Part shown: piece by piece, positions 4,371 through 63,930 of the stretch
Layout of the letters: every line of letters begins with the position of its first letter
How positions within the stretch are numbered: position 1 is the first letter of the stretch
NCBI RefSeq assembly: GCF_037042905.1
Contig: NC_087251.1
Span: forward strand, 6,822,001-6,886,000
Length of the DNA stretch: 64,000 bases
Origin: Lytechinus pictus
Taxonomy: Eukaryota
Reading direction: 5' to 3'
Notes under the pieces: model-generated
Told to the model about the DNA's origin: nothing
The model's database searches: none
The model's input: only the letters and a program-made list of their open reading frames with translations
Translations under genes and position numbers: made by a program

Positions 4371-5211
4371 TACTATTTTCAGTCCTATGATATTTGCTTA
4401 TGTTCTCCAACTATACCTCATAACAAAGCTATAACTCATATTCACATGAATGGCTTATATGACAAACATGTTGATTGTTATACATCTTTCCTATTGATTT
4501 CAATTACTACACAGGTAAGGCTAAAGGCAACGAGAATTGGACGTAGCACTAATATTACATCAAGTTCTGCCAACTAATCTAAATTCCAAAAGAGCACTCT
4601 TTATTTTTAGCAGCAAAATTAGTCTGTTTTTCACATTAGTCAATGAAAGCTATATCATGCATGTTTACAGAGTGCAATATTTGCCTCATTAGTCTAAATT
4701 ATAAAAGAAACTGGCATGAGAGTAACCTGCTAGAACATTTCTTTAATTATATTTTTAATTACTGTTCTCACATGATATATTGATAAAATAAGCATCTTTT
4801 CAGAATCTATAATGGTTGAAAAAATGTTTCTAAATAACTAATTTACAGTTACCTACTATTACTATTACCAAGATTTCCATGGCAAAGAAGAATAGTGTAG
4901 TAGGTTTCTGAGGACGACAAGAACACACTTGTAGAAACGTAAAGATTGGGTGGTCCTTTACTGGACCAACACTTGCCCAAGATACATGGTGTACCGTGAA
5001 ACCTACTACACTAACTAATTTACAGCTTTTGTTATTTTTTCTTTTGCATTCACCATACTGATAATAGGTTATACTAGATATTAATCTTAAATGAATTCAG
5101 GACATTTTATTTATATCTTCTAAGTGTTTTAATCGGCATATTTAAGCTGTTATGATTTCAAAACTCTTTGACTACCCCCTGCCGCCCCCCCCCCCTCTCT
5201 CTCTCTCATTA

Positions 5212-5664
5212 ATATGCTTTTCACACTGCATTTCCTTAACCCCATACTATCCTTAACCCGGGACTATCCTTAACCCCATACTATCTTTTTTCGATTCACA
5301 CTGTCTTTCTTAACCCCATACTATTTGCTTAGCCGGTGTTAACGCCTTAACCCTGGGCAATCACACAGCTCATTAATAGTGATGATTTTACCATACAGAG
5401 CGCGATTAACGTGCAATTTCGACTACTGTGATTGGCTAATGCTTAGCCCCACTTTTCCTTAGCCCTGTTTCGTTTCACACTGCATCTCTTAGCACCGCAA
5501 TTGTGGTGCTAGCACCACAATAAGCTGGCTAACCCTGCTTTTTTGCAGGGCCAGATAGTACCGTACTATTTACTGTGCTAGCCCACTTTGCTAAAACCCC
5601 CCCCCCCCTTAGCCCCACCAATTTTCTGGGGTTAAGGGGAAAAAGTGCAGTGTGAAAAGCATAA
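5212..5664. mobile_element. Harbinger-like MITE, family A, copy 1
   Basis: TIR TATGCTTTTCACACTGCA / TGCAGTGTGAAAAGCATA. It is an inverted homologue of 28379-28880 and carries internal TTAACCCC/TTAGCCCC subrepeats. Confidence 0.85.
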
Positions 5665-8600
5665 TATTTGCCTATAAATAATTAGGAGACATAATTAGTA
5701 AAAAAGAAAACCTATATTGAATGAGTGCTGCTTGTTGTTGTCTTTATTCCACAAGTCTTTATAATGTAAATATTTTAAGGCAACCAAATAATTGTTGCTG
5801 TGAGAAGTGGGGCTAAGTGCAGACAATTTGCCCCTGGCCTTCCCTCGTGTATTGAATAAAATTGTACACTTTCAAGCCAGTGGCTTATTTGCATAAGGTC
5901 ATGATATTTGTTATCAGATTAAATTCTTGATTTTTTATCTCATTTTGTTTTCTTTTAAATTTTGTGTTAGGTTGTGTACACTCTTGAAAGTAGTGCCCTA
6001 TGGCCCCTTACACCACCCCCCCCCTGCAGATACACCACTACCAGAGAGATTTGAGTTGCCTTTGTAATAGTGAAGTATATCGGCCTCCTTTCATCTTGTA
6101 ATAAGAATCGAGTGTCCTTGGTCATTTTGAGAGACAAATAGAGAGAAAGGATTTAATCTGCACTGTTCAAACAATCCTATAGCTATATAAGAATTCATTC
6201 TGTGTTAAACATGGAATAAAAATTTGTTTCTCTTTGTGGATGTTTATTGTTGAGATTAATTGCCAGGGCATTGTTGTTGACAAAATGTAGAGAAATTCCA
6301 TTATTGATAACACTTGATTTGTTACTTTATTCATTTTCATTACTCACTCGTAGGGAATTTAGAATGGTTTTTATTGTATCACTTTGATGTTTCTCTGCGT
6401 ATGGGGTGTGATAATCCGGGGGAATTGATATGTTTACATGATTTTGACCATGGAACGTGATACCAGTAGTTGTAGCCATGCTATTGGGGATCTGACTTCA
6501 ATCAATTTCATCTATTGTATACAAGTTATATTTCAACGTGGGGGATGTTTTCTTTTGTGTTTAACCTCATTAATACTTAATGGTTCATGCAGATCATGGT
6601 AACTTTATAGAAGTTTGTTAAGAAAAGAATTATACCAAAGATAATGATATTGAATATTTTTTATATCTATTAATGCCCGTTGAAATCATTTCAATGCCAT
6701 TGGTATTACTACAGCTATATTAGGCGACCATTTCAGGATTCAATGAATTCTGTCTATTCTCAATCATTAGAGTTCTTGAAAAATCATTGAATAAGAAGGT
6801 TTCACTGATATTTTGTTCTGACTAATACACTAACCAGCTCCGCCTCTTAAGTCAATCACAAGTTGAGTTTCAGTGAAGGTTAATATTGGTTATATTTTCC
6901 ATAATTGATAACAAAACCGAGCTATCAGATTATATTTTGAATGTGCCATCTTTTTCTTTCTTTTCAATATAAACATCCAGGCACCACACTTTTTGTTCCT
7001 CCAACTAAAGAGTACTTCATGGATCATATTATTTACATTAAGTGGTAGTTTTGCACTCTTGATCTCTCTCTCTCGTAATCATTCTCTGTTCTCAGAATTG
7101 TATTCTTGCTACTCAAGTGCTGTGTTTTGTTTGGATTGAAATTGCTTTAAATTTAACAAAGCCAGAAAGTATTGTATGATATTTCTCTAGTATTATCACT
7201 GAGTTTGATGTCTCTGAGAGGTATGAAGATGTGTTAGTGGTTACTCCATTCATGATATCAGACATGCAGGTATGTAATGGATACTACACGTTCTCTACTT
7301 CCTGGGGAGTAATCCAGTGCAGTGTTGAATGCTGAACGGTGTATGTATTTAACCCCTGGGTGGAGAGAGTCAAATCTGTGAAAGATGCTGTGGTCGGAGT
7401 GGAATCCTCTACCCTGGTGTCTTCAATTTCTATAAGTCCAATATACAGGCTCAACATGATTTGAAATGATACTAAGTCATATCTATGAGGATTTGCTTCT
7501 TCAGTTTTTATTGGTTGGTCTTTTATGGCCAAGCACTTGTTTCGGATGTAGAATGACTCAAGTTTGTATATCTTGGGAATTGCTTGGCGTGGATTTAACC
7601 AACAATTTCTAGTTCAGGAGGCAGACATTCTACTACTAGTAACTTGGGCAACTCACTGAACTGCTAGTGGCTATATGTATAACCATAGCTGCTAATAAAC
7701 ATATTAGACATATATGCATTAAATTGAAGTACTTTTATTGTGAAAAACAAATGTTTCTATCGGGGGTAAAAAAATATTTGTTCTTTTTACATAGAAGAAT
7801 TATTTCTCATCCTTTTCTTCCTCTCTTTGTTATTAGTATCATGAGATTGGGCTTAACCTTTAATTTTGTTTTAAGAATATAAGACACCTTCATCAACCTC
7901 AAGACACATTCATTCTTAAGAAAATTCATCTCACCAGAGACATATTCTATCTCATCTTTTTTTTTTGCTAGGGGCAACACTGAAGATGAGTCTTAGCATC
8001 CAAGACAATGTTTTGGAAAAGGAAGAAAATATTTATCAAGCGCCTCTTCTTTGAAGTAAAGGTTATTAACTTCTAGCTGTACATTTGTCTGGGTACAAAG
8101 TGGTCAAGTATCCTTTTCCCTTTAAGATTGTTTGCCCGGAAGATTAAGTCTGCTACAATTCTATGTCAATGTTTTAGTCTGATGATGTTGTGACAGTGCT
8201 GCCCTTTTTCTTTCATCTTTATGTATCCAATAAGTATACTCTGTAAATGTTTTTCATTAGTCAATTTCCAATCCTTTTTCAGAGAATTAGATCAGTTGCT
8301 TTTCCTGTTTTAAGTACTATAGTTGTCATCCTAATAGCAAACTTTATGTGTACAGAATGCTGTGGCAACAGGGGAGGGAGGAGGTGCAGGGGGTTGTCAA
8401 AGGTATTTCAAAAAATCTGCATAAGATAGTGATAAATGATAAAAATGCAACTTATTAGAGCACTCGTTCGTACTTTGCAGAGTGCTCAAGTGTAAATTGT
8501 CATTAGCTCCTTAAAAAAAATGATCCTGAACCGATTCATTTTAACGCTATTTACAAATGATAGGAATTAATTGAGGGTAATGCATTATCAAATTCTATAA

Positions 8601-12384: not shown

Positions 12385-12835
12385 TACCGTGTTTACACTT
12401 AATCGGCAATTGGTTCTGAACCAATTGCCGATGCAGAATCGGCATTTGGATTGCGTTTACACGTTGTTACAGCTCACGGTTCAGAACCGCGAGCCGATGC
12501 AAAAACTTGAAATGATACGCATACCTACAATATACGTCATAATAAAGACAACGCTGGATCAGTGCGCTAACAATTACGTCACAATGGTAAAGTAATTGAA
12601 ATGCGCACAAATTGCCGGTGCAGAATCGGCTTTCTGTTTACACGTAGTAAAAAAGCCGATTCTGCATCGGCTCGCGGTTCAGAACCTACTACTTTGGTGG
12701 TGCAAATTGCCGGTTCTGAACCGCGAGCCGATTCAAGTTACTCGCGTTTACACACTATGAAAAAGCCGATGCTGCATCGGCTCGCGGTTCAGAACCGCGA
12801 GCCGATTCAAATGCCGATTAAGTGTAAACACGGTA
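12385..12835. mobile_element. Harbinger-like MITE, family B
   Basis: Perfect TIR TACCGTGTTTACACTTAATCGGCA and 3-bp TSD CAT (12382-12384 / 12836-12838). CpG-rich, with internal palindromes ATCGGCTCGCGGTTC-A-GAACCGCGAGCCGAT. Confidence 0.9.
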
Positions 12836-15800: not shown

Positions 15801-16052
15801 ATTTCATTTCCTGATTTAAATTTGCTTCTCACTATATAGTTCTAATATCTTTTATTCATTCATTCATTCATTTATACATTAGTTTATTTATTCATATATT
15901 TATTTACTTGTTTATTCATCTATTCATTGTATTCACACATATCCATAATATCTATAATACAAATGTAGTAGGTAGATAGATAGAGATGATATAGAGAAGT
16001 GAAAAGTAAGCCTCAAAGATTTTGTGATGAGCTTTAAACTATTGATATCCTA

Positions 16053-16725
16053 TTGATTGATTGATTGATTGATTTTATTCCTCAAGAATATCACAGGTGA
16101 TTACAATGAAATTGAAGAATACCTTGACAGGATAGCCCATGAAAGCCGAAAGGCTTATTTCCAATGGGGTCCTATAATTGTTAGTATAAAACATTAAACA
16201 TACATTACTATGACAAGTACTGGAATATGGTAAAAAAATATACATATCCATCAAGTAATTTGCAAATACCTTAAGCAAACAATTATCTACCAAATATAAA
16301 ACAAGAAATATGTTTTATCATACCCTACATTATCTACAATACTAAAAACCAACTGTACAAAATGTGTCATTTTTCGGGTAATACTGTTCTCGAGTAGATT
16401 CCAGTTTTAGGTGCTTTTTTAATGCAATCTTAAAGTGAGGAAAATTTTTAACTGCTTTTACTTGATATTGGATGCCATTAAAATGAAAAGTGTTCCCTAT
16501 ATGTCCTTCACGTTTTGGTAATACAAAATTAACATTACTATTTCGAGTATCGTACCTATGAATATTTGATACACGGGTGAAATTATTTGCTATATAATGA
16601 TCTAATGTATCCAACTATAATATCTTATGCACGTAGTGTAATACTAATTGTTCAGATCTTTGATCTATATGAAGTAATCCTGCCTTTTCAAGTTCATTAC
16701 ATCTGACATGTGCTCTTGGCCCTAA
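16053..16725 (-). mobile_element. 5'-truncated L2-clade LINE (ORF2 C-terminus, 3' UTR, (TCAA)n tail), copy 1
   Basis: The minus strand reads ...ELEKAGLLHIDQRSEQLVLHYVHKIL*...HRYDTRNSNVNFVLPK...FKIALKKHL, typical of L2/CR1-group ORF2 ends. It is followed by a 3' stem-loop, AATAAA and (TCAA)n. It contains an internal stop. Confidence 0.8.
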
Positions 16726-17626
16726 AACATTTATTACTATTGATGTGATTATGTCTTTAGTTCAAAGAGAAAATTTGATAAGTTCATCTATTTCTTCATC
16801 TCCGCTATGGGATGAATTTGATAATTGTTTGGTTTTTTTTTTTAATAGACAAGTTTACTTCCGTTCCTTCTGTACAAATATTTCAGATGATATGGAACAC
16901 CTGAACATAAGCACCTTTTAATTTCAGGCAATGAGATAATATAGCATGACTTGCTCATCAATATACCTTTCTTTCCTCAGCTTTACCTCTGAAAAGATAG
17001 CTACATCCAGATTATATTAGAAGCGATAGTATAGGTCTTGCATTATCTACATCTGTGGTAATTATTTTAATGTTCATGTGCATGATGGATTCACTAATAT
17101 TTAGTTCTCTCAAAGTTTTTCATTCCCGGCCGTTGGTAAGATGAGGAGGGTTTCCATGGCAAACGACTAAGCTGAGTCACATTCACTAATTAGGTGAATT
17201 GTGGCAATTGTGTTCAACATTTCGCCTGATTAGGTTCAAATCATCATGCAACGCCACACCTACAGATACTCTTCATAACTGAGTCATCCTATTAGCAAGT
17301 CCTCCTCATACACAAATACATGGCCTACTTGAAATAGAATGAAGATGTCTGTTTTCTTAGCCCTAAAGCCCAATAATCCTGTTTATTGACCAGATTTGCT
17401 TCTCACTATATAGTTCTAATATCTTTTATTCATTCATTCATTCATTTATACATTAGTTTATTTATTCATATATTTATTTACTTGTTTATTCATCTATTCA
17501 TTGTATTCACACATATCCATAATATCTATAATACAAATGTAGTAGGTAGATAGATAGAGATGATATAGAGAAGTGAAAAGTAAGCCTCAAAGATTTTGTG
17601 ATGAGCTTTAAACTATTGATATCCTA

Positions 17627-18299
17627 TTGATTGATTGATTGATTGATTTTATTCCTCAAGAATATCACAGGTGATTACAATGAAATTGAAGAATACCTTG
17701 ACAGGATAGCCCATGAAAGCCGAAAGGCTTATTTCCAATGGGGTCCTATAATTGTTAGTATAAAACATTAAACATACATTACTATGACAAGTACTGGAAT
17801 ATGGTAAAAAAATATACATATCCATCAAGTAATTTGCAAATACCTTAAGCAAACAATTATCTACCAAATATAAAACAAGAAATATGTTTTATCATACCCT
17901 ACATTATCTACAATACTAAAAACCAACTGTACAAAATGTGTCATTTTTCGGGTAATACTGTTCTCGAGTAGATTCCAGTTTTAGGTGCTTTTTTAATGCA
18001 ATCTTAAAGTGAGGAAAATTTTTAACTGCTTTTACTTGATATTGGATGCCATTAAAATGAAAAGTGTTCCCTATATGTCCTTCACGTTTTGGTAATACAA
18101 AATTAACATTACTATTTCGAGTATCGTACCTATGAATATTTGATACACGGGTGAAATTATTTGCTATATAATGATCTAATGTATCCAACTATAATATCTT
18201 ATGCACGTAGTGTAATACTAATTGTTCAGATCTTTGATCTATATGAAGTAATCCTGCCTTTTCAAGTTCATTACATCTGACATGTGCTCTTGGCCCTAA
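17627..18299 (-). mobile_element. Same LINE fragment, copy 2 (produced by the tandem duplication)
   Basis: Identical to 16053-16725 shifted by 1574. Confidence 0.8.
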
Positions 18300-19725
18300 A
18301 ACATTTATTACTATTGATGTGATTATGTCTTTAGTTCAAAGAGAAAATTTGATAAGTTCATCTATTTCTTCATCTCCGCTATGGGATGAATTTGATAATT
18401 GTTTGGTTTTTTTTTTTAATAGACAAGTTTACTTCCGTTCCTTCTGTACAAATATTTCAGATGATATGGAACACCTGAACATAAGCACCTTTTAATTTCA
18501 GGCAATGAGATAATATAGCATGACTTGCTCATCAATATACCTTTCTTTCCTCAGCTTTACCTCTGAAAAGATAGCTACATCCAGATTATATTAGAAGCGA
18601 TAGTATAGGTCTTGCATTATCTACATCTGTGGTAATTATTTTAATGTTCATGTGCATGATGGATTCACTAATATTTAGTTCTCTCAAAGTTTTTCATTCC
18701 CGGCCGTTGGTAAGATGAGGAGGGTTTCCATGGCAAACGACTAAGCTGAGTCACATTCACTAATTAGGTGAATTGTGGCAATTGTGTTCAACATTTCGCC
18801 TGATTAGGTTCAAATCATCATGCAACGCCACACCTACAGATACTCTTCATAACTGAGTCATCCTATTAGCAAGTCCTCCTCATACACAAATACATGGCCT
18901 ACTTGAAATAGAATGAAGATGTCTGTTTTCTTAGCCCTAAAGCCCAATAATCCTGTTTATTGACCAGAGGCAAAATAATATATTTTCCCATTTTTACCTA
19001 AGAATTATTCAAAGTGCATTTGTAGTTCACTTGCCAGTACTCACTATGAAGAGAAAGCAAATTGAAGTGATTTTTGGTGTTCAATGTCTGTAGATTGCAT
19101 GTATTCTAAGGAATGTTTCTATGGGTGTATGGTTCATTGGTCAATTTATTTTATTCATCTGTGGGCGTTTTATTTTAGGATTACCTGAGCTGTTTTACTC
19201 TGACTCAATATGTAGTCACTGTTTTATTTCCCTTTGATGGGTGGCGAATTACTCATGAATTTGGACGACTACACTGAATTTGTATTGACCGAGTGTTTGA
19301 TTTTCACCTTGATTTAATTTTGACAAAGATTATAAAGATTATAAATGTTATGTTACAGGGCTGGAGATAGCATATATGCTGATGGGAGCAAATAACAATT
19401 ATATTTGAGTCGTAGATTCTGATAGAAAAATTATTTGATTGATATATTGATGAAAGAAATATTGTGTTGAGAATGAAAATAAGTATTTTTGTCAAGTTAT
19501 TGTGATTAGTAAATAGTTGCAAATATTCCTCAACTAATCTCAATTGTTGTACCCTATATAGAAGGGAATATTGTTTTATGATGTCTATATTTGTTTACTT
19601 AAGACCATATGAATATCCATCATAATATGTAAAGGTTCTACTGAGAATAGCAAGTGAAATGTTGATAATGTTCCTGGGATATTGACGAGATTCTAGAGAC
19701 TTTAGACTCCAACAGATAGTTTTAT

Positions 19726-19747
19726 CAAGGAGCTTGGAAGCTCCTTG
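19726..19747. mobile_element. 22-bp palindromic P-element-like footprint
   Basis: CAAGGAGCTT-GG-AAGCTCCTTG flanked by the perfect 7-bp direct repeat GTTTTAT (19719-19725 / 19748-19754). Confidence 0.7.
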
Positions 19748-20296
19748 GTTTTATGCTGATGGAGGAGTATTATAGCAGACTTGTAAGACACTCTGTTATT
19801 CTCATTTTGACAATGCTATCCACCCACATCATAGCCATACACAATCCAATGATGACAGATGGGTTCATGTATCAGCAAACAATAATTCCACTTTACTATC
19901 ACATCACATGTTAGCTTGCTTCTATATGAAAAAAAAAATTCTACAATGCAATATCATACAGGTTGATGATGTGAAAATATATTTGTAGGTCGATATATTC
20001 TAAAGTAATGCTGACAAATTAATATATACATTTTCAATTAACTCTTTTTATTCTTACTTCCTTTGGAGTTTTGTATGATACTTGGATGTCAGACATCAAG
20101 ATTGCAGTAAGAGAATAGATAAAAACTTACATCATTTACCAGATATCAATGAAACGAAACATGAATGCATGTCTTATCTGTTAACTTAAGAGCCAAAAGG
20201 ACATTATATTTTGATAAAGCAAATGATTTATGCCCTTCTTGCTCCAGACAGATGGTATACATGAGGTTATCATGAATTTTCTTGAAGAGTGCATCT

Positions 20297-20779
20297 ATAG
20301 GTGGTTTCAGACCGCCTCGAAGTTTGCCAGTTCCAGGTATTCTCTGATCGGGAAATTTACCCCGATCAAAAATACCAGGTATTTTGGCGGTGTGAAAGCA
20401 AACTACGCGAATAATATCCCCGAAAGAAAATACCTGATAAATAGTAGGTACTTGGCGAAATTACGAGAACTTTCGCGGGGATTTTTCCAAGGTCGTGGGT
20501 ATTTTGGCGGTCTGAAAGCAAATTACGGGAACTTTTAGCCCAGCGTGTCGTTGGGTGCGGCGCCGTGCATGGGTTGCTGCTGGGCTAGTGATTTTGAATT
20601 TCGCGCCTTGCTGCTTATCAGACCATACTGCGCATGCTCGTAACTTCAGGAACTTATCCCGAAGGGTATGTTTCAGGGCGGTGTGAATGCAGGAATAATT
20701 AATGGGTATTTTTCAGCCTAAAAAAGTTCTCGTAATTTAAGGGGGATTCTTGTGATCGAGGCGGTTTGAAACCACCTAT
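20297..20779. mobile_element. MITE, family C (probably Harbinger-like)
   Basis: TIR ATAGGTGGTTTCAGACCGCCTCGA / TCGAGGCGGTTTGAAACCACCTAT (23/24), with internal repeats GGTATTTTGGCGGT(G/C)TGAAAGCAAA. The TSD is ambiguous. Confidence 0.8.
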
Positions 20780-23344: not shown

Positions 23345-23527
23345 CAGGGGCCGCGGAAGCGGGGGGGGGGGGGGGCTGGGGAGCTTCAGCCCCCCCCCCC
23401 CACTTTTTTCAAAAACCGTGTACAAAAACGTAAAAATAACCATATGATTGTGATTTTTGGCATGGTCAGCCCCCCCCCCCCACTTTTGGCTCAGCCCCCC
23501 ACTTTGAAAACCGTTCCGCGGCCCCTG
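23345..23527. mobile_element. GC-rich MITE with 5-bp TSD, family D, copy 1
   Basis: TIR CAGGGGCCGCGGAA / TTCCGCGGCCCCTG, TSD CTTTG (23340-23344 / 23528-23532), with G and C homopolymer runs. Confidence 0.9.
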
Positions 23528-25968: not shown

Positions 25969-26601
25969 GAGGCTGTTCACACCGCAAGGGGGGACCGTGG
26001 GCGGACCGTGGATCGCGCTATCGTAGCGCGATCCACGGTCCGCCCATTGGCATTCGCCGGATTCACACCGCAGTGAGATAGCGCGGTCTATCGTAGCACC
26101 CCCTTTTTTGAGAGGTCCTGTTGCCATGACGCGTGACGTCATGAGGTCAGAGCGGTCAAAGATTTCGCGCGCTATTACGAACCCGTACTAGTTAGTTGAG
26201 AGCTCGATATCGCTGTGCCTATTATGCTAGCCGGCCTACGTTTATTTCATGGCGTTGTATACATTGTGCATGTATTTCTATTAATCTAGATTCTAGACAC
26301 TTGTATTTTAACTGTGTTTGTGGACGTGAATGAGTATAAAATTCCCCGCGTGTAGAACGATGACTTCCGGCGTGCTATCGTAGCTCGGGTTCACACCGGC
26401 AGAGATAGCGCGATCTAGCGCGCGCTAGACCGCGCTATCTCTCGTGGACCACCCCCAAGAGGTGCTCCAGTGGCACGCCGTTTTGGCTCGCCGTGGCTCG
26501 CTGTTGGGCGGACCGAAACAACGTTGTACCTTCCACACCGCAGAGATAGCGCGATCTAGTGCGCGCTAGATCGCGCTATCTCTGCCGGTCTGAACAGGCT
26601 C
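25969..26601. mobile_element. Harbinger-like MITE, family E
   Basis: TIR GAGGCTGTTCACACCG / CGGTCTGAACAGGCTC (14/16) and TSD TAA (25966-25968 / 26602-26604). CpG-rich, with internal palindromes built on AGATAGCGCG. Confidence 0.9.
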
Positions 26602-28378
26602 TAAGTTTGGTTTTAGGGGGTGCATTTCAAGGAATGTCTTTTCATTCGTTTTCAATAAAAAGAAATTCTGTCAGCCAATTAGGTGCAAGGATTTCAGTAA
26701 CTTATGATAGTTTCCAATGTAAATCACAGACAAACTACTCTGTGAAAACACTTCCCAGATCTACTGTATACCCTTCCATGAGAGACAATCAGGCTGCTGC
26801 AGTGAAAATCAAGAATCTTAGCTGAAACCCAAGACTAACGTGAGAGCTAGGCAAGTCTTTTTCAAGTTCAACTATGTTATAAATCAGAGTTATGATGATG
26901 AGATTGAGATCACTGTGGGAGAAATCATGAATGGGTGGAACCCATCAGAGTTCAGCAGGCCAATCTCTTCCTGAAATTGGATCTTGGATGTCACCCCAAC
27001 TATCTTAGACTCTTGTCATGTTTATCATTTTTCTTCATTTACCAGCCGCAGAATATTCTTGCTTGGATGCTTGTAGGGGGCTTGGCAGATAATGAGGATA
27101 TTTTTCCTAATTGTGCATTTCAAATCGCATATTTGCGTTGAAGCAAAATGCAATTTCCAAGTGCTCGTTTACAACTGACAAGGTCTATTTTATCATTGGA
27201 AATTGCGCTTAGCCCCTGGATATTTTTTCCAGGGTAGGGGAATGATCTTTACGTGAAGATGTCAATTGTTCATCTTTTCTTTTTTTTCTGGGGGGGTATT
27301 GAAATAGTGAAGATGTGGAGGAGAAGACGTTTTCCCAAAAGAAAAACTACGTCCTCAAATTCCACAGTGCTGTCTTGGATGTGTGGAGGAAAAAGGTAAA
27401 AATCATCCAACAGCAAAGTAAAAGAGCAACATAAAACTGAACAATAACAGGAGCAGTAATTGTTTATTTTCTTGAACTTCTGCATCCCAACCCCTGGTTG
27501 GATAATTTGATTGTCAATTAATTTTGTCAGTTCACCTGTGTTCAGATTTTTTAGTTGGAACTGTTTATTTGAGCTGCCAGGTATTTCAAGGTTTATACTG
27601 TAATAGAAGAAGACTTCTTGAGAAAGTTGTTTATAATTAGGCCTGAATGATAAGAATTGAGGTAGAAAGATCTATCTCAATTCAAGGTTAAGGATTAGAA
27701 GAATTCTTGAACTCTCATTTCGATATACCTATCATTCCTATATGACTTCTGAGTAATCTGTTTTGCTGATGTTAGCTTGGATGCCAGTCTCCAAAAAGAA
27801 GATGTGGAATTATTTCCTGTAAGTTCTTTCTTACACTCATGTCTGAATTCCCCCTATTTCACTTTCCATTCAATTCACCATACCATCAGACCCCCCCCCC
27901 CATTAATTGCTTTTATCACTATTCATTCCCTTCCTGTTTTTTAACATATCAAAGTGGATCTCAACCCATTTTTTTTTTCTTATTTCTCTGTCAATTTTTT
28001 AATTTAACATTTATTACATGTTTTGCGAGAAGTCTGTCTCTCATGTTCTTGTTTATCACCTGTCATTCTAGTCATATGAAATATAATTTGAACTCAAGGT
28101 ATCAGTGATTGGACTGGCCAGTACATCAAAACACTCGGTGTGTGATGCTAGGTTATATTATAGGTGGCGCAGTTTGCCAATAATCGTCATGAATTCTGTT
28201 TCTTTCAAAGAAAACAGGTTTTGGGAAGATAGTCTTAACTTTTTTGTGCATGAGGGCATGAGTCTACAGAATGGCAGAATTTGATACGGATAAAGCGTAG
28301 GCTATTGTACTATTACAAACCTTATCATGAATATATTCAATGGGTTAAATACAGTTGTTGTTTTTTACAAAGTCTCTA

Positions 28379-28880
28379 ATATGCTTTTCACACTGTACTT
28401 TTTTCCTTAACCCTGGGAAATTGGTAGGGCTAAGGGGCCTTAGCCCTACCAATTTCCCGGGGTTAAGCTTAGCCCACTTCGTTTTCACACTACGTTTTAG
28501 CAAAGTGGGCTAGCACGGTAAATAGTACGGTACTATCTGGCCCTGCAAAAAAGCAGGGTTAGCCGGCTTATTGTGGTGCTAGCACCACAATTGCGGTGCT
28601 AAGAGATGCAGTGTGAAACGAAACTGGGCTAAGGAAAAGTGGGGCTAAGCAATAACCAATCACAGAAGTCGAAATTGCACGTTAATCACGCTCTGTATGG
28701 TAAAATCATCAATATTCATGAGCTGTGGGATAGTCCGGGGTTAAGGCGTTAACCCCGGCTAAGCAGATAGTATGGGGTTAAGAAAGACAGTGTGAATCCA
28801 AAAGAAGATAGTATGGGGTTAAGGATAGTCCGGGGTTAAGGATAGTATGGGGATCAGAAAATGCAATGTGAAAAGCATAT
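28379..28880. mobile_element. Harbinger-like MITE, family A, copy 2 (opposite orientation to 5212-5664)
   Basis: TIR ATATGCTTTTCACA / TGTGAAAAGCATAT and 3-bp TSD CTA (28376-28378 / 28881-28883). Confidence 0.9.
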
Positions 28881-31800
28881 CTATGTGTTAACATTGGCTT
28901 GTTTATTAGGGTTCTGGTATCATGCATTTAATTTTCTTGGTGGACCCTAATATATTATTACATTTTAATATTTAGCATGATATCAATGCATTCTGGGTTT
29001 CCTCTGATGCTAAAACCCTTAAAAATAATATTGAATAAAAAAAGGATATTGATCAGAAAGCCCTTCAAAGAACAATGAATATGCATATGATTTTTATTAA
29101 TTATTTTTTGGTGATTTAGTTTTCAAAGAGTTATTAAAAGGTCAGTGTAATAGTTGTTCTCTGCACTCTAATTTTGACAAATGTCTTCTCAGCCGGGTTC
29201 TGAAGGATACTGAACTCTGATCTCCTCCTTACACAGTTGATATGATTATCATATTTGTTCTATTCAACATCAGACAATGATAATAATTTTAAAAATGGAA
29301 ATTCATCAATCTTGTTTTGTTATTTCATGATTGATTTGAGATAATTCCCCTATAGGTGTTTCCCACCATTTACAAATGGTGTTCTTCATCCATTCAATGC
29401 CAGATTGGTTTCCCCCTTATTATAATCCCTTTCCTCTATTCTGCTTGGTGGAACTCACCAGTGTGTTTCATCTTACTCAGCTGACTGGACATGACGGGAC
29501 TAGACCGGTCTTCGTGACGCCATCCCCCATCATTAACAGAACCGCTTCGATGACGCACCTGAAAAGAACACAAATTACAACCCAGCGATATCTGTGTAAT
29601 TTCTTGATCAAATTCAATTTTTGCAATTGTTGAAGCATGGCCTGTTCCTTTCAGCAATGCTAACCACACAATTTATCATTGATAATGGCTTCCTTGCACT
29701 GCGGTGGTGGGGTTTGTTATTGATTTTTGTCTGTTTGGTGTTCATGAAATCAGCTGGAATGATTTGTAATCAAACAAATTGCTTGAAGAGCTGTCTTAGT
29801 TCCCAACAGAATTGTCAAGCATCATATCTTGCTCTTGTATAGCCATTATTACCATGCAGATGAAGTGTTTATTATCAATATAAATATAAAAAAACAGGCC
29901 TATCGCTTTGTGATATGCATTATCCTACCCCCTATCTACAGCTATCAATGATATTAATGTGAATTTTATGCATTGCCAAGATTAGATATAACTAGCAAAT
30001 AAACTTCTTGGGTGTGTTCTGACTCCTGAGTATAGTAATTATCAGTTTGATCAAACATGCAACAATCTATTGCAAGGTTAACATTTTCTTTGTTTTGAAA
30101 TTGTCACTTTCTTTTTAGCTCTGTTTTTTTCTTTATTTCGATCATAGTATTTCATTGTGTTCCCCCCACTTGCACTTTAATAATCCCTTATCATGTTGTA
30201 TTGATGCTGATTATTTTTTGTTCTGTCATACCATCTTTTCTTCCTTCTATGTCTTCCTTCTCCAAGTGAAATCCTTTTCTGCAGTGATATGAAGTATGGG
30301 TCCATAGACCATAGATAAAGTCGTCAATTGAATTATACCAAGGAGTTGTGTGACCTCATTCTGAAGTCATTCAACTCAAAACAATGAAACTCCTCATGAA
30401 ACTCACTCGCTATAACAGCTGTTGGTTCCCATGTTCCTTTTCAAAGTTTTTTTCAAAACTTTGTTTGTTGAATCAGTTGCTTGAACATGGGTTTCTTTCA
30501 AATCATCTGCAGTATTATGAATTTATGAACATTGAATTGTTTTCCTTAAAATTTTAGTATATTGAGACAGTCAGTAGACTCCACCCCTTCCCCATTCATA
30601 TTTTTTGGGGGGGATATCGGAATCCTCTGGGCTGGCATCAGGCTTTATTGTACACTTTGATTTCAGATGATTTTTATGATTGGAAAATCATAGTAGTGAT
30701 CTGTTGACTAATCAAAGTAATTTAGTATGCAGGATAAAACAATATCTTTTTCTTTTTACTTTCTCATGAAATTCACTAGATTCTTGTCTTTGAATTTTGA
30801 ATAGGCCCTAACATGACATAATAATGAGAAAATGGGATATTGCTTGTTCTTTATAGAATCACTTCAGTGAGTATATAGAAATGATATTCATATAGTGATG
30901 TCCATAAATTGTGAAAGATAACCTAATACCATGACTCATATCAGGATATGACATTGAGTTATAATGTCATATAACCTCGTCATTATCATGAAATAGTTGA
31001 CCATTTTTTATGGTTGATATGGTCAGAGTTGAATTTATTTGGTTCAAGCATTCCTCAACCGCATTTGTTAGATCTGTATATGATGCAAACATTTTAAGTT
31101 GGCCTTTCTTTTTCTGAATAGTGACTGGAATGAGAGCGAGACCAGTCAAACAATGTACAGAATGGCAAGGTTGAATAGAACAGATTCATGGAAGAACCTG
31201 GGCATCAAACATTAAATCAGCAATCAATGACAATTCTTACATTGGCCAATCAAAATCATTATTGCATGCAAAATTCATTCAAAAGACTGACGAGTAAGCA
31301 GAATTGATGTTTCTAGTTTGCAAATGATTTCAAAACTCTTTGCAAGCAGGACAAGATTGAGAGAGACATTGCAAATTCATTGAATATTTTTAACTGAAAT
31401 TAATGGTCTCTTTGATTTTCTGATTTCTCACATCAATGAAAAAAAGGAAATATAATTGTCCTCAAATTATGTGCCAAGAATAATAGTTGTGTATATGCAT
31501 GTGATTGATATTGATAGAGAATCATTATTTGGCATTGTTCGAGATTTGTATTTTGTCATAAACAGATAAAACTTACAAACACTATACCCAACAGATAATG
31601 TTTGGTAATTTCAGTACTTGTATCCCTGGGTTTTTTTTTGTCTGGTCATGAAAAACGTACTCTACATCTCTTTTTTTTTCTACTTACAATGTATCAATAT
31701 CTTTAAAAGTAACTTTTTCATGATTATTAGACAGTGGGGTTCATTGCCCCATGGACCTATTACCCTAACCATGTTATACAAACAGATCATTAACAAGAAA

Positions 31801-34013: not shown

Positions 34014-35570
34014 ATGATATTATATATTTTTCTCTAAACTCAGTAACAGGGGTAATGCAGAGTTATAGTACCATGACCCAGGCCTTTCTTTTTCACTACT
34101 TGAAAAATCAATCACCCCTGCCCCCCCCCCCCCCCTGTTGCGCCATCCTTGCAGTAAATTGCTTAGCTCCAGCTAGAAGTCTAAATTATAAATGATAAAG
34201 TTTGTAATTTTCTCCTTTTCCATTCATATCATGTAATATATTTCTTTATGATATTATTGACATTTATGGGGATTTTTTTTATACTTCATCAGTTATTGCA
34301 ATTTATCAAAATTATGCATCTTGTTTCTAGTTCCTTGATATAACAAACTTGTATTTTATTATTGAACTTCATCTGTTCACTATTCTCAAGACTTCTTTTT
34401 TTTTTACTTTAGTTATTAAAAAGTTATTCAAGTATAGATGAAGGTATGTATACTGATTATTCTTAATTAATTAATTCATTGACCAAGAAGGAAAGAAAGT
34501 CCAATACAGTATTATTGTGCATATTTTTAGAGGAGATTGGTTAAGAGGGTGCGTAATTTCTGACTCTGCTGCCTTGAACTTGTCAACTCAACTATACCAT
34601 TAATATTGTTATTTATTTTTGTAGCTCTTAAAATCTGTTTTCTGTGTCAAATTGGCAGGTGATAAAACACTTCAATATCTCTTAACCGACAGGGAAATTA
34701 AAGACCTTGACTGCATTGATTGATAATCATAGTAGTAATATATTATTTTTGATCCAGAAAAGTAAATGTATCTATAGATGTATTTCAAAGTGTCAATGTT
34801 GAACTTTATAAAAAAATAGTCAGAGAAAAAAGATTTGATTCTAGCAATTAAATTATAGACCTAATGTCCTTTCAATTATATCATCATCATCAATATTTCA
34901 TACACGCTTCCTGTATGTTCTGCTTTAATAAAGATGTATTTGTAAAATGCTTAATTTTTGACACATATATTAATTACAATCATAAATATATATTTGTATC
35001 AAATTTTCTGGAGGAATCAGTGATTATTTGATGATATATGTCAATTGGGTAACTATTTGATTGCCCTTTAAACCATCTAATAAACTGTGGGTGTAGCCCT
35101 ATGCAATCAACCTTGATGGGAATACTTGATTGATCATCAGTAAACTGATCTTGATATGATATGTTCTGCATTCTTAAGAAGCTATACAAGTTAAAAGGAA
35201 TGTATGTATTATCAAAAATAAAAAAGCTTCATGTGCTTAATTAGATAGTTATCACATAAAATGATTGACACCAGTTATTGTCTTGTGCTATATTGTCAAT
35301 ATGGTGGAGAGGGAAAAACACTTTGTTTTTTATCATGAAGGTATATTTTTATTAATCATTTACACTTTGTAAGTGAAACACAGAAACCTTGAAAAGCATT
35401 AGGGAGATTTCATGTTTAATGTCGTGTTGGTGTTAAAAGCACCTTTTCATATTGACTACCCTACATATAGCCCAACTGATATGAGCTTACAAAAATGGTC
35501 CAAACTTTATTCTTGAAAGTTCAATTACATCATGTTTGGTTCATCTCATGCAGGACCAGTTTCATTTTAA

Positions 35571-36156
35571 AGGACAAGTCCACCCCAACAAGAAGTTGAT
35601 TTGAATGAAAAGAGAAAAATCCAACAAGCATAACACTGAAAATTTCATCAAAATTGGATGTAAAATAAGAAATTTATGACATTTTTAAAGTTTTGCTTAA
35701 TTTCACAAAATAGTTTGCACATCCTGGTGGGTATGCAAATGAGGAGACTGATGACATCATCCACTCACTATTTCTTTTGTATTTTATTATATGACATAGG
35801 GAATATTTTATTTTTCTCCTCATTGTTGAGTGAAACAACGATTAATTCCTCCCTGAACATGAGGAATGAGCATTGTTTAATACTATATGATTCAGTCAAG
35901 TTGGTCCTTATTGTCAAATCTAAAAAAAAGAGATATTGTATAATTCAAACAATATAAAACAAAAGAAAAAGTGAGTGAGGGACATCATTGACTGTCTCAT
36001 TTGAGTTGTGCATATCACTGTTTTGTGAAAAATAAGCAAAACTTAAAAATGTCATAACTTACATATTTTACATCCGATTTTGATGAAATTGTCAGTGTTT
36101 TGCTATTTTGATTTTTCTCTATTCAAATCAACATTTTTCTGGGGTGGACTTGACCT
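35571..36156. mobile_element. Kolobok-like non-autonomous DNA transposon
   Basis: TTAA on both sides (35567-35570 / 36157-36160). TIR AGGACAAGTCCACCCCA / TGGGGTGGACTTGACCT (16/17), with long imperfect subterminal inverted repeats. Confidence 0.85.
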
Positions 36157-36765
36157 TTAAGTTTTGTTCAATGCTGACGTACCACGTATGCCCAACACTA
36201 AAACTAAAACACAGAAGTAGCTTCTTGTGCCAGAGTCCCTGCATATTGTTTTAAGATCATGAAGATACAATATATGTAATGTTGGACAATATTACAGAGA
36301 TAAAAATTTCACATTTTTATGTATAGATTATGTGAAATCAGCCTGTAATAGCAGCTTCATTTTTCTAAGGTGTCTGGATATCCAACCCCAATCTTATAAC
36401 ATTAAATCACTTTATATACTAAAGCTTACTGAAACCTTATTGTGCTCAGGTCTTTCTATATGCTCAAAAGACCTTTTTAGTATTTGTCCTAAGTTCATAA
36501 GCTGGTTTTGAGAAGGAATACCCTGCATTCTGACATTGAATACATACTATGCATATATCATTAGATACAAGAATTTGTTCCATTTATTTATTTTTTATTA
36601 ATCACCAGCTGTTTTGTTTATTCCATTTGTATAAAATACTATGCAAGAGTTTGTCTTCATGCGTCAATATAGCACATCATATTGTTTCGGAACAATGTAG
36701 AAAAATTCCCACACATTGGAAGAGAACAGTTAAAGTAATTTAGCAGATGTAAAATGCAAAACATA

Positions 36766-47682: not shown

Positions 47683-49770
47683 ACAAAAAAAGTAAGTCTC
47701 CCCTAAATCAAATTGCTGTAACTTTTGAACGGAATTATTTTGAGATATGATATTCCGTAGGTGGTTTTCTACACTCATTAAGCAACTCCTGGGGAAAAAT
47801 AAGATTGATCGGTTGAGTCATGCATGAGTAATTAAAGATTGAATTAAAAATGACCATTTTTGAAAGTCACAAGAGTCGTTTTTCAGATTGTGCAAATACA
47901 AAGTTGGGCAAATGTTGTCTTTAGGTGAATTTTATGGTATTATGCTGTTTTACTATCCATCATTTAGCCACTCCACACACAATTTTGATATCAATGTTCA
48001 TGGTTGAGTGAGCACAATGTATTGCAGGGGCCGCGGAAGCGGGGGGGGGGGGGGCTGGGCGGGGAGCTTCAGTCCCCCCCCCCCCCCACATTTTTCCAAA
48101 AGCATGTAAAAAATGTAAAAATAACCATACGATTGTGATTTTTTGCATGGTCAGCCCCCCCCCCCCCCCCACTTTGAAAACCCTTCCCCGGCCCCTGTAT
48201 TGTGACGTATCATCATAGGGGTTTATGGTAGTATCCTCTGCAACTTGTTAGATCATGTTAGAATTTGAAAATGTTGGTGGCTCCCCCGATTATAGGCCCC
48301 TCCCCCATTTTAAAATTCTGGACCCACCACTGATTTGTCCATAAATTAAACTGATCATGAGAAATTGTTAGGAAAAGAATACATTTATGCAGTATAAAGA
48401 GTATTCATTCCTAAGTTTTCGAATGTGGTCGCTCAACCATGAAAATGTTTAAAGTTCGGAGAGTGTGTGGTGATAGAAATGATGGATGATAAAAACAATA
48501 GCAATTAAAGTCTTATTTGAAACCGAATTTGCCCCCAATATTCACTTTATTACCCTTTAAAATGAGTCTGTGACATTGAAAATACCAATTTTCCCACTTT
48601 GATGCGTGCTCACTCATCCATAAATACACAAATCGATTTCATTTTTGCACAGAATTCTGCCCATAGGTTGATAAACATTACTGCCAAATGACATTGCTAA
48701 AGACAGCCGTGAAAAAAAGTTCCACCATATTGAATAAGGGGTTACTTATTCTTAAACATGTGCACCCATAATGTACACAAGTCTATGAGAGACGAAGTCA
48801 ACATTTTAACAAATATGAAATGAGGGTTTGTTTCATGGACGGTTTTTGTTACTTCTGCCAATAGTTATTTCATGAAACTTCGTACATGGCTTCAGAGTAA
48901 CACTATCCAAAAGGCGCGCACACCAAAATAACCATTCGATACTACACAGAGTGGGGCCAAGGCCTTGAACTTTCTTCTCATTTGCATAATTTTCGAATAT
49001 TGTGTGCTCAATGATGCATTAAACATCGGGATTTTCATAAAAATCAAATCAAATGAACTATGCAAGGAGGTTTGTGACAGATATCCATAGTAACAAATTG
49101 CATTTTTTCCAATAACGTAAAAAAGAGCTAATCGCATTCCACATGTTCATTCAAGCGTGGATATTTAATTAAACTCCTTTGAATCATTGAAGCATTTTAA
49201 TTGGTCATGAACATAACGAAAAAGTTGAGAAAAGATAATTTTCAGTTCCCAAAATGAACCAATACTTGCCAATTATATTTGAAAATCATATTTTTTGTTT
49301 TCAATAAATGTTCATTGAACCGTGAAACGATGAATATTGTTGAAGAAACTCTTCCAAAAATAACTGTCATCATATTCTATCATTTTTATTGATATAAATG
49401 TGTAAAAAATCCAATTATAGCAAATTTGGACTTGTGTTTATTCAACCGTGAAATTTAGCCAAAAAAGTTGTATCGTCTTTTAGAGAGTACCTTTTACAAG
49501 CCTTCTGACTATTTTTTATGATGAGAATGTGGAATTAGTTCCAATAAAATGGAATCAAAGTCATGATATTTGGCTTGTGACTTTTGAAAAGTGACATTTT
49601 TGCCTTCTGACGGTGCTCACTGAAGCATGAAGTGAAATACGTCCATAACGTTTACTCAGAGGGTAGCTTATAAAATTACCTACAGGCTCATGTAAAAATA
49701 TATTAAAAACTCGCATTGGTTCGGAAATTATTGATGTTTGTTTAAGGGGGGACTTACTTTTTTTGTTGTG
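47679..49770. mobile_element. 2.1-kb non-autonomous DNA transposon inserted in a (TA)n microsatellite
   Basis: TIR CACAACAAAAAAAGTAAGTCTCCCCTAAA / TTTAAGGGGGGACTTACTTTTTTTGTTGTG, with (TA)n on both sides. No transposase ORF. Contains a nested family D element. Confidence 0.85.
48025..48197. mobile_element. GC-rich MITE with 5-bp TSD, family D, copy 2 (nested)
   Basis: CAGGGGCCGCGGAAG ... CTTCCCCGGCCCCTG, TSD TATTG (48020-48024 / 48198-48202). Homologous to 23345-23527. Confidence 0.9.
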
Positions 49771-52332: not shown

Positions 52333-53587
52333 ACATTATGGTATTATAAACTTGATAATTAAAATTTTGGTATATTACACTTAATATTTTTTGGTATTAT
52401 ATAATTCAATTCACTGTTGAAGCTTCACTGGTATTTACCTCATATCAAAAGCATATCAAAATTTTCTATATATTAGGAAGTACATACTAATGTTACTAGT
52501 AAAATTCCTCATTTGACTAGAAGTACATGTACATGTAACATCAATGCCATGACGCAGAAGTTTGCTCAGTTACACTAATATTTGAAAGCAATAACATACA
52601 GTGTATTACTCAATCTGAGCATCTGAATTGTTTTTTTATTTTTTATTTAAGATGATTTATGCAAACATGTGGTCCTCTTTATAAAGATATATAATTTCAA
52701 ATAATCTCTTAAATATATACAACAGAGCAAGAAACGTAACATATCAATTAAAATAAAAAAAAACAAATACATGTGTGAACAGTGTGACAGTGTTTCCTGA
52801 ATTAGGAATTCAGATTATTATTAACATCATATAGTTTCTCACCAGTTGCTACAGTTTGATTTTAAAAATTACAGTAATTGTTTGTATTGATGTTTGAGCA
52901 TATACATGTATGTGGTGCTCTGGTTCCCTGTAAAAAAAATAATTAATTTGAGTAATTTTATGTCAATGAAAACCATGGGAAAAAAGCTAGAATATTGATT
53001 ACATTTCTTTATGGAACAGGGCCGTAGACCATCAAAATCAGACTGTAAAGGCAACTTAAAATATAGAGTACATGTATGAGTAATTATTTCAGTAAAACTG
53101 ATGATATTAAAAAGAACATGGCATTCTTGCCGAAACATATATAGAGAAAGCCAAAACAATAAAAACTTAGACCATTTAATTCATGAAAACATGTAGTAAT
53201 AGTACTCTTTGTTGTGGTCTCACAAGTTTTTCAAAATCATACCAATGTTGAGACAGAACCAGATTTTCCCAGGTACTGATGAACAAGCAGCAGTCATTTA
53301 CAACAAAATGTTTTGGACTAACCACAGAGGCATACAGCAGGGGAAGCAAACAACTGTACTTTGCTACATTTCTGTTATTAAAACACAATTTTAGTGCTTT
53401 ACATATTGCAACATCAATAAAGAAAATCGGCCGCGTATCCATCTGCACAGCATGATGACAAATATATTAAATTAGCATCAAACATTCACATTAACAATTG
53501 CAGAATGAGTTACGGCTTTGGCATGTTCGTTTTTCTGTAATGAACAGTCTTGAATGTTCCATTGAAACAGGACACTCACAACAGGTC

Positions 53588-54085
53588 TCATGTTGGGATA
53601 CAACAGAGCTTTTTCCAGATCGTTCCTTTCTTTTTAGGTTTTGTGTCCTGTGCTCTCTTGGGTGGAGGTGGGATTTTTTCTTTTCGACTCAATCTCCGTC
53701 TCAGGCTTTTTGATGATTTAGGTGGTTTAGTGTACTCTAGTCCAGTTAATATTACAGCATCAAAAACTTCCTTGAGATTGTGCTGGGTAAGTGCAGAGCA
53801 TTCAATATAACCCACAGCATTGATACGACTTGCGCGCATAGATGCCTCCTCTTCACAGATGGGACGTTCCTGATGTTTTGAAAGGTCTATGAGAATGTTA
53901 ACATCTGTACGGAGATCACACTGTGTTCCAATCAGCAGGATAGGAGTCTTTGGGTTGTGACGTCTGAGCTCTGGTAGCCATTTCTCCAAGACGTTATGGA
54001 ATGAGGTGGGTGAGACAACGCTGAAGCACAGCAGGAAGACGTCTGTTTGAGGATAGCACAGGGGCCTCAGAGAATCAAAGTCATC
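53588..54085 (-). CDS. RHOU: RhoU/V coding exon 3 (DDFDSLRPLCYPQTDVFLLCFSVV...WKKLCCIPT*)
   Basis: Acceptor TTTTTGTCGTTTCAG, phase 0. Contains the switch II continuation, G4 (GTQCD), G5 (ECSA), a polybasic tail, a dicysteine terminus and stop TGA. Confidence 0.96.
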   Translation of the reverse strand, partial: DDFDSLRPLCYPQTDVFLLCFSVVSPTSFHNVLEKWLPELRRHNPKTPILLIGTQCDLRTDVNILIDLSKHQERPICEEEASMRASRINAVGYIECSALTQHNLKEVFDAVILTGLEYTKPPKSSKSLRRRLSRKEKIPPPPKRAQDTKPKKKGTIWKKLCCIPT

Positions 54086-60000: not shown

Positions 60001-61028
60001 GAATGACTGGGCAAACATTTCACCTCCATTCTGCCATGGTGGCACCCAATATTTCACCTGGGTTTGGGCACAATACATGTGAGATATTATTCCAGTCTTT
60101 GTACTTGAATCGTGCCATGCCAGCTTCTTCACGCTTACAAACTCAGCAGCATGAGCTAAGGCTAACAAAAACTTGTCTAAACATGGGCGGTATAGAGTTT
60201 TGCACACAGCAGGGTATTGAAGCCATGGCGCCATGATCTGATTAGGCCACCACTGTTGGGTCTATTTATTTGGCTAAACTTGAACACTAAAGATCCAGTC
60301 AAGCAAAGAGTAAAGCAAAAGATATAAACAGAATCTGCAACGTTTTTCTTTGTCCACATTTATTGTAAGACTCCTTCCTACAAAAAAGTACAAGGTACAT
60401 GTACAAACTTTTCCAGATCAAAGAACCAAGAGAATTTGGCACTACTGGTCCCTGATGTATGTGTAGGGACAACTTTGTTTTGTTTTTAGGCAAAACAGCA
60501 CAAACTGGAGGCAAGTGAATTGCAAACTAACTGTATAATTGCATAGTTGTATATTTGTTCTCTTTTTAAACCCCTCACAATCGTTTTGAATAATTTTTTT
60601 CTTATCTTTTAATATCATTTTATTTGTTTCAATTCAACATTATGTATGTGGTACAGTTGTACAAGTACATGTATGTAAATATGCATGATGTAATTGTACA
60701 ATGCAGTATTGCACAATGTGAATCTCACACTTGTGTAGCCATGAGTGGTCTTAGCCCGTTGATGATTCATTCAAAGTAAATACAAGAAGGGCCTACATGG
60801 TACATATATCCAATTAACTGTGTATAAACCTTATTGTAAGCCATATATTATGGGCAAAATCCAGACCATAAAGATATGAAAAAGTTGTTTTTTAGAAATA
60901 CAGTTTAAAATAGATGTTGATAATGATATTACATGGATGTAAAATGTTTTTAGAAAGAAGAAAACTATTTCATGAAATATGAAACATTAAACTGAATTTA
61001 TTTTTATATATGAATATCATCGACTTAC

Positions 61029-61087
61029 CTGCCCAGCAGTATCACATATTTGAAGTTTGATTGGTTTTTCATCAACTCTTATGACAA
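61029..61087 (-). CDS. RHOU: RhoU/V coding exon 2, 59 nt ((V)VIRVDEKPIKLQICDTAGQ)
   Basis: Absent from the ORF track. On the minus strand it has the acceptor CCTTTTTTTTCAG and donor CAG|GTAAGT. It encodes the G3 motif DTAGQ and restores frame between exons 1 and 3. Confidence 0.95.
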
Positions 61088-63699: not shown

Positions 63700-63930
63700 T
63701 CACTGCACTCTAACAGCTGATCGATATCGGGTCGTACCGTACGTCACGTCGTACCGTACGCGTATATATGTACGCTCGCTAAAGTAGTAAGGTAGTGACG
63801 TAGCGTGGATCGCCCGCTGCGATTGGTCGTCTTTCCACTTGTTCCCATAACCAAGGAGCTGAAGCTCCTTGCCATAATAGAAGGGTTGGGTGCACGGGTG
63901 TCACCTCAAGTCGGCTAAAATCAAAGGCCA
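63700..63930 (-). promoter_or_regulatory. Putative RhoU/V promoter (CpG-rich)
   Basis: Abrupt CpG enrichment upstream of exon 1. Motifs: TATATA 63763-63768, CCAAT on the minus strand 63822-63826, CRE-like TGACGTA 63796-63802 and TACGTCA 63740-63746, direct repeat GTCGTACCGTACG at 63731-63743 and 63748-63760, TCF/LEF consensus ATCAAAGG 63920-63927. The TSS was not determined. Confidence 0.65.
63852..63871. mobile_element. 20-bp palindromic P-element-like footprint in the RhoU/V upstream region
   Basis: CAAGGAGCT-GA-AGCTCCTTG flanked by CCATAAC / CCATAAT (6/7). Same arms as 19726-19747. Confidence 0.65.

Follow-up and report, generated by a model that had tools for sequence, protein, structure and literature searches.

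A palindrome of 22 bp enclosed between two copies of GTTTTAT in Lytechinus pictus (site 1) is probably, with a rough probability of 0.7, the scar left by an excised DNA transposon, likely of the P superfamily, whose staggered cut would have produced single-stranded tails near 11-12 nt. It lies in non-coding DNA of the 64-kb stretch analysed here (the window), has neither a Pfam or Rfam match nor an evident function, and would stand as the fixed trace of a single insertion and a single excision.

The sequence at 19719-19754 is exactly as first described, GTTTTAT being followed by a palindrome with a GG centre (10 + 2 + 10) and by GTTTTAT again (Table 1). The ATAGT half-site to its left overlaps the first 2 letters of the left GTTTTAT copy, and the GG centre would consist either of letter 11 from both ends or of letters 11 and 12 from the right end. 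For the 36-nt strand, a folding energy of -9.1 kcal/mol was obtained (z = -6.1). Among 60 simulated windows, one contained a palindrome whose arms reach at least 8 bp within a perfect 7-bp repeat, and the count was likewise 1 of 60 for an 8-bp repeat, site 1 being thus by itself just moderately unlikely. On the contrary, its 9-bp arm occurs 4 times in the window versus 0.23 expected, a count reached in none of 100 shuffles, and all 4 occurrences fall within the palindromes of site 1 and of a second site (site 2).

Table 1. Features of the two palindromic sites, with positions in the window, strand and supporting evidence
Feature	Position	Strand	Evidence
ATAGT, left half of target-site motif, fits ANAGT tendency of P/1360 targets	19716..19720	+	sequence; PMC3276498
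Site 1 left 7-bp target-site duplication, GTTTTAT	19719..19725	+	single copy at empty orthologous site
Site 1 left terminal remnant, 10 bp, CAAGGAGCTT	19726..19735	+	sequence, arm counts
Site 1 2-bp centre, GG; putative repair junction	19736..19737	.	sequence and inference
Site 1 right terminal remnant, reverse complement of left arm	19738..19747	-	sequence, arm counts
Site 1 right GTTTTAT copy	19748..19754	+	29 letters absent at 19719 in runs X4, X6, X8
Site 2 left copy of degenerate 7-bp duplication, CCATAAC	63845..63851	+	sequence
Site 2 20-bp palindrome, 9 + 2 + 9, arms as in site 1	63852..63871	.	sequence
Site 2 right copy, CCATAAT, 6/7 identical to left	63872..63878	+	sequence

Four of the 15 listed sequencing runs were compared over window positions 19380-20120. 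Their orthologous contigs differ from the window at ~7% of letters (45 over 627 in X6, 32 over 430 in X8), indicating that they come from a diverged relative, and the orthologous flanks of site 1 show many small gaps between the two organisms. In the three runs that cover site 1, which represent three samples and three studies, the relative's contigs are devoid of 29 letters, 22 plus 7; those of X6 and X8 span the gap and extend over more than 31 letters to either side of it, that of X4 has 11 on the left, and in run X1 the orthologous piece starts at 19779, so that the site is uncovered. As the absent segment equals the unit plus one 7-mer, GTTTTAT is a true duplication, and the empty site removes chance as an explanation of site 1. 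The single-copy 7-mer proposed at the outset as a check of the scar is, therefore, present in the relative in 3 of 3 covering runs, where the empty allele is the only one seen (best share of runs versus the window's sequence, 0.13). The simplest reading would be an insertion in the L. pictus line, with precise loss in the relative as the alternative.

Alternatively, the structure might never have belonged to a transposon, being instead repair filler, a template-switch duplication or a protein-binding palindrome, absent from the relative through slippage between chance 7-bp repeats. Hairpins between direct repeats are prone to precise deletion, the comparison of two organisms allows either direction of change, and site 2 adjoins CCAAT and CRE-like boxes. 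Nonetheless, the same arms appear at many unrelated loci and in unrelated organisms, each time between their own 7- or 8-bp repeat, and local template switching would copy the flanks rather than a shared sequence. A non-transposon origin is strongly disfavoured, and we attribute hardly any weight to it.

At site 2 (9-bp arms at 63852-63860 and 63863-63871) the arms do recur 44 kb away as the sequence-only reading stated, while the flanking 7-bp repeat described there is imperfect, CCATAAC versus CCATAAT. A second palindrome sharing the same 9 + 9 arms is expected 2e-6 times per window. Sites 1 and 2 have unlike centres, and site 2 can be parsed as a 9-letter piece of one end joined to the 11 right-hand letters that it has in common with site 1. 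The distance from site 2 to the CCAAT box is 26 bp, and it lies upstream, by 528 bp, of the start codon of the sole gene found in the window. This gene, on the minus strand, encodes a RhoU/cdc42-like GTPase; its exon 1 matches L. pictus exactly and differs at 3 residues from Lytechinus variegatus, and its exon 2 is identical to the L. variegatus protein. With one of them upstream of a Rho GTPase gene, such scars would add 27-29 bp to regulatory DNA, with no function evident. As a separate observation, TACATGTA occurs 13 times in the window versus 2.3 expected from base composition, with 12 of the 13 copies in the 52.5-62.5 kb interval (52524-62461), in and just past the RhoU gene.

Beyond the orthologous locus, at least 18 pieces among the 28 listed from the relative match only 19714-19757 and continue into unlike DNA on both sides. 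Upon merging records that agree between runs, they would represent ~11 distinct other loci among the listed matches, with palindrome lengths, on the assumption that every gap falls inside the palindrome, of 17, 18, 20, 22 (4 loci), 23, 24, 25 and 26 bp. The outer ends are constant and the centre varies between loci, the gap position being known for one of them (a single, central gap of 5 letters, 19732-19736). Three loci with zero substitutions over the matched span differ in length (17, 20 and 23 bp), and the three readable junctions (site 1, site 2 and the 17-bp form) share 11 right-hand letters (19737-19747) and keep, respectively, 11, 9 and 6 left-hand letters. Site 1, site 2, the copies of the relative and the duplication-flanked metagenome copies described below all retain the two duplications and, enclosed by them, parts of the two terminal repeats. 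Since the comparison reveals just copies near 22 bp with GTTTTAT-like flanks, it demonstrates variation and sets no upper length limit. Three of the relative's loci carry exact GTTTTAT, whose chance frequency is 2.5e-4 per strand; this suggests, as a rough figure, hundreds to thousands of copies in the relative's genome, or fewer if the family prefers such sites. In addition, a 79-letter contig matching 19722-19755 is found at a depth ~5 to 10x single-copy, and its 22-bp scar thus lies within a multi-copy repeat of the relative and may have been amplified as a passenger.

These lengths also bear on whether the 22-bp palindrome could itself be mobile, as an ends-only MITE moved by a transposase and creating a fresh 7-bp duplication each time. 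Filled and empty states differing by exactly the unit plus one 7-mer would suit this idea, and so would the 22-bp class, which is the commonest (4 of the ~11 other loci, plus site 1) and counts as a point against the scar for fitting a fixed-length unit; the element would then be far smaller than any described MITE, with tips common to several unrelated organisms. On the contrary, 7 of the ~11 loci have other lengths, three of them without any substitution, and the unlike centres of sites 1 and 2 are not those of uniform copies. Moreover, according to PMC7776569, the P transposase of the fly depends on internal binding sites located past the terminal repeats, and 22 bp would be too short for internal sites or for two-end pairing. 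A mobile 22-mer is, consequently, very improbable in our opinion.

In the mechanism that we favour for the scar, a DNA transposon with ends starting CAAGGAGCTT, probably a 1360/Galileo-like member of the P superfamily, would have inserted at GTTTTAT, duplicating 7 bp, and the filled state would be the derived one. The transposase would then make a staggered cut, opening one strand at the element edge and the other ~11-12 nt within the inverted repeat, each chromosome end keeping a single-stranded tail that corresponds to an element tip. By analogy with Drosophila, these tails would be end-joined with some trimming or a few added letters, giving a short palindrome between both duplications, and the 22-mer could be an untrimmed 11 + 11 join if the ends differ at position 11, or a 10 + 12 join if they are alike. 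With every scar being an independent repair event, uniform outer ends and varying centres would be expected, and the length variation restricted to the inside fits end-joined overhangs. Part of that variation possibly represents later decay, the orthologous flanks being gap-rich, which is a point against the scar.

A long staggered cut is a signature of P transposase and, in the papers considered here, has been measured only for the fly enzyme (PMC7776569, PMC2895639). According to these sources, the fly cut falls at the 3' end of the element and, on the opposite strand, 17 bp within the repeat (PMC7776569). The ends left after excision bear 17-nt 3' tails, whose joining yields products with the two duplications and with pieces of both repeats that are trimmed, microhomology-joined or extended, the commonest product with short microhomology being of 30 bp (14 isolates; PMC2895639, Table 1). 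The kind of scar here proposed is, thus, already known from fly experiments. Junctions of Drosophila P and of the urchin share the retention of both duplications, a palindrome made of two tips, uniform outer ends, and centres that are trimmed, microhomology-joined or extended by short or templated insertions. On the contrary, urchin scars are natural and fixed rather than induced, and are flanked by duplications of 7 bp instead of 8 bp. Their commonest length is 22 bp, implying a tail of ~11-12 nt, versus ~30-32 bp for the 17 nt of Drosophila P. The 17-nt fly stagger invoked initially is a poor fit for these scars, as the urchin arms stop near 11-12 nt in a sample biased to short copies, which suggests an overhang near 11-12 nt in the urchin versus 17 in the fly.

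Metagenome contigs were scanned for two 9-bp arms 0-30 bp apart, allowing total lengths of 18-48 bp. At least 120 loci matched, with 116 distinct contexts among those listed. Perfect flanking repeats of 7 bp surround L012 (23 bp) and L054 (43 bp), and perfect ones of 8 bp L043 (24 bp) and L025 (38 bp), where 0.014 and 0.004 are, respectively, expected; one-mismatch repeats flank L008 (25 bp, 8-bp repeat) and L115 (30 bp, 7-bp repeat), with expectations of 0.07 for 8 bp and 0.24 for 7 bp, the latter making L115 weak. Perfect repeats of 6, 9 or 10 bp were absent among the 116 listed contexts, and none of the 46 distinct contexts (61 loci) in viral contigs had such flanking repeats. An excess of flanking duplications, put forward at first as a way to check the scars, is hence found elsewhere, 7- or 8-bp repeats being far above chance. 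The six duplication-flanked loci contain no long reading frames and have the appearance of non-coding DNA from eukaryotes; the centre of L025 repeats part of the right arm of that locus, resembling the templated insertions of fly repair products, and the arms of L054 measure 20 bp each, exceeding a 17-nt tail. In L012, L035, L043 and L115, one arm each reads the same 12 letters inward, with position 11 differing from the urchin arm; judged from these letters, the shared arm suggests that a terminal repeat lineage may be conserved across unrelated hosts. L035 (601-622) carries these 9-bp arms in a perfect palindrome of 22 bp, situated at a contig end where the right flank is absent, ~415 bp upstream of a RhoA-like first exon that is followed by an intron; its location upstream of a Rho-family gene, as for site 2, probably reflects a shared promoter preference or chance.

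The long arms of L054 and the 30 bp of L115 indicate that scars with these tips are not all short, which counts against the scar as proposed and in favour of an ends-only internal deletion, in which a longer element of any superfamily that duplicates 7 or 8 bp would have lost its interior through aborted gap repair after excision or through collapse of a long hairpin or cruciform, with no long stagger required and the tip length being then uninformative on cut geometry. Consistent with this are (i) the origin of most fly repair products in incomplete synthesis followed by end joining, as reported in PMC2895639, (ii) the many longer palindromic elements in the window, and (iii) the bias of the comparison towards short copies, by which the upper length is unconstrained. 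Nevertheless, aborted synthesis should presumably yield broad lengths and unequal arms, whereas lengths of 20-30 bp are found, when 18-48 bp were allowed, in the two window copies and, among the 6 listed metagenome copies with duplications, in the 4 other than L025 and L054, and elements of 30-15,000 bp with these tips are absent from the window. In addition, hAT, MULE and Transib transposons leave hairpins on the flanks and not element tips (PMC5499845), so that a palindrome could come from them just via gap repair. Altogether, an internal deletion appears to us unlikely, and excision, with the tails then united by end joining, is preferred.

Regarding the affiliation of the excised element, target-site duplications are of 7 bp at site 1 and of 7 or 8 bp in the metagenome copies, the sizes proper to the P superfamily. 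The arms begin with CAAGG, which agrees with the CA...TG termini of this superfamily, and Yuan and Wessler are said to have given CANRG in 2011 as the consensus of its terminal inverted repeats. Duplications are of 7 bp in 1360 and Galileo and of 8 bp in P (PMC3698922, PMC4168063, PMC3276498); those of 7 bp also occur in some hAT families (PMC4455052), and Kyakuja is described as having 7-bp duplications and CA..TG ends with no inverted repeats (PMC12730594). Similarly to 1360 (Hoppel/ProtoP) and Galileo, site 1 shows a 7-bp duplication and fits the 1360 consensus KTNBWAB at 7 of 7 positions together with the ANAGT half-site (PMC3276498), while AAC, as in the GTTNAAC of 1360, closes the flanks of both site 2 and L054. 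On the contrary, with regard to the P-group target motif (ANAGT...ACTNT / GTTNAAC / KTNBWAB), site 2 fits one half and the fit of the 6 metagenome sites is mostly poor, the target sites lack palindromic character, with 0 to 6 self-complementary positions among 15-16, and the comparison with 1360 and Galileo covers duplication size and target motif.

None of the 117 window frames of at least 68 aa matched a transposase family, Pfam matching only the two Rho exons, and the window has 0 Rfam matches. Pairs of CANRG ends separated by as much as 15 kb and flanked by a 7- or 8-bp repeat comprise, in the window, the two known sites and 5 others, which were taken as chance on account of their poor inverted repeats and different tips. 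With neither a full-length element nor a transposase found in the window, and with every copy seen being devoid of the interior where subterminal transposase-binding sites would lie, the assignment to the P superfamily is based on the termini, the size of the duplication and the target motif. Thus, as regards the P/THAP-type excision scar envisaged by the sequence-only reading, the empty site, the duplications and the inside-only length variation speak for the scar, while we infer P membership and the staggered cut. THAP9-type genes have been reported from sea urchins to humans (PMC10983969). No account of such termini, or of P-type scars occurring naturally across a genome, was found in the literature outside Repbase, most subscription journals and supplements, and a named family with these ends may exist in that remainder.

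Other non-coding relics and footprints share some of these features. P-MITEs of Anopheles gambiae and BuT5 resemble the urchin unit in being non-coding, with P-type ends and duplications (PMC1562414, PMC3698922); on the contrary, as presented in these sources, they span hundreds of bases, keep subterminal sequence and are mobile, whereas the urchin unit has 17-26 bp and variable centres. Footprints of Tc1/mariner and of hAT, MULE and Transib elements are likewise short end-joining scars at donor sites, and breaks of the hAT type form hairpins on the flanking DNA, their scars therefore copying the flanks (PMC5499845). The urchin arms, on the contrary, are common to loci with unlike flanks and show no flank copying, at variance with hAT/MULE/Transib footprints. 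Scars of the Tc1 type retain, at TA sites, only a few letters from each end.

The locus contributes an orthologous site found empty, an apparently shorter cut, and tips that recur in unrelated organisms. If these palindromes are scars, their length profile would allow the cut depth of an uncharacterised family, here near 11-12 nt, to be read from genomes, and their number would count past excisions that are invisible to repeat annotation. The recurrence of these tips, with 7- or 8-bp duplications, in organisms unrelated to one another points to a lineage of wide distribution, traceable by its scars.

The window also contains other repeats. An exact tandem duplication of 1574 bp (15820-18968), 100% identical and with a LINE-like 3' fragment inside as judged by eye, is either very recent or an assembly artefact. 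Two poly-G/poly-C MITEs with CAGGGG ends and perfect 5-bp repeats are placed at 23345-23527 (183 bp) and 48025-48197 (173 bp), and a 477-bp MITE with inverted ends and TA on both sides at 20300-20776. A TTAA-bounded foldback element of 594 bp occupies 35567-36160, presumably Kolobok- or piggyBac-like given this boundary, and palindrome-rich elements are found at 5207-5666 and 28377-28885 (a pair, 95% complementary over 310 bp), 12401-12807 and 25998-26595.
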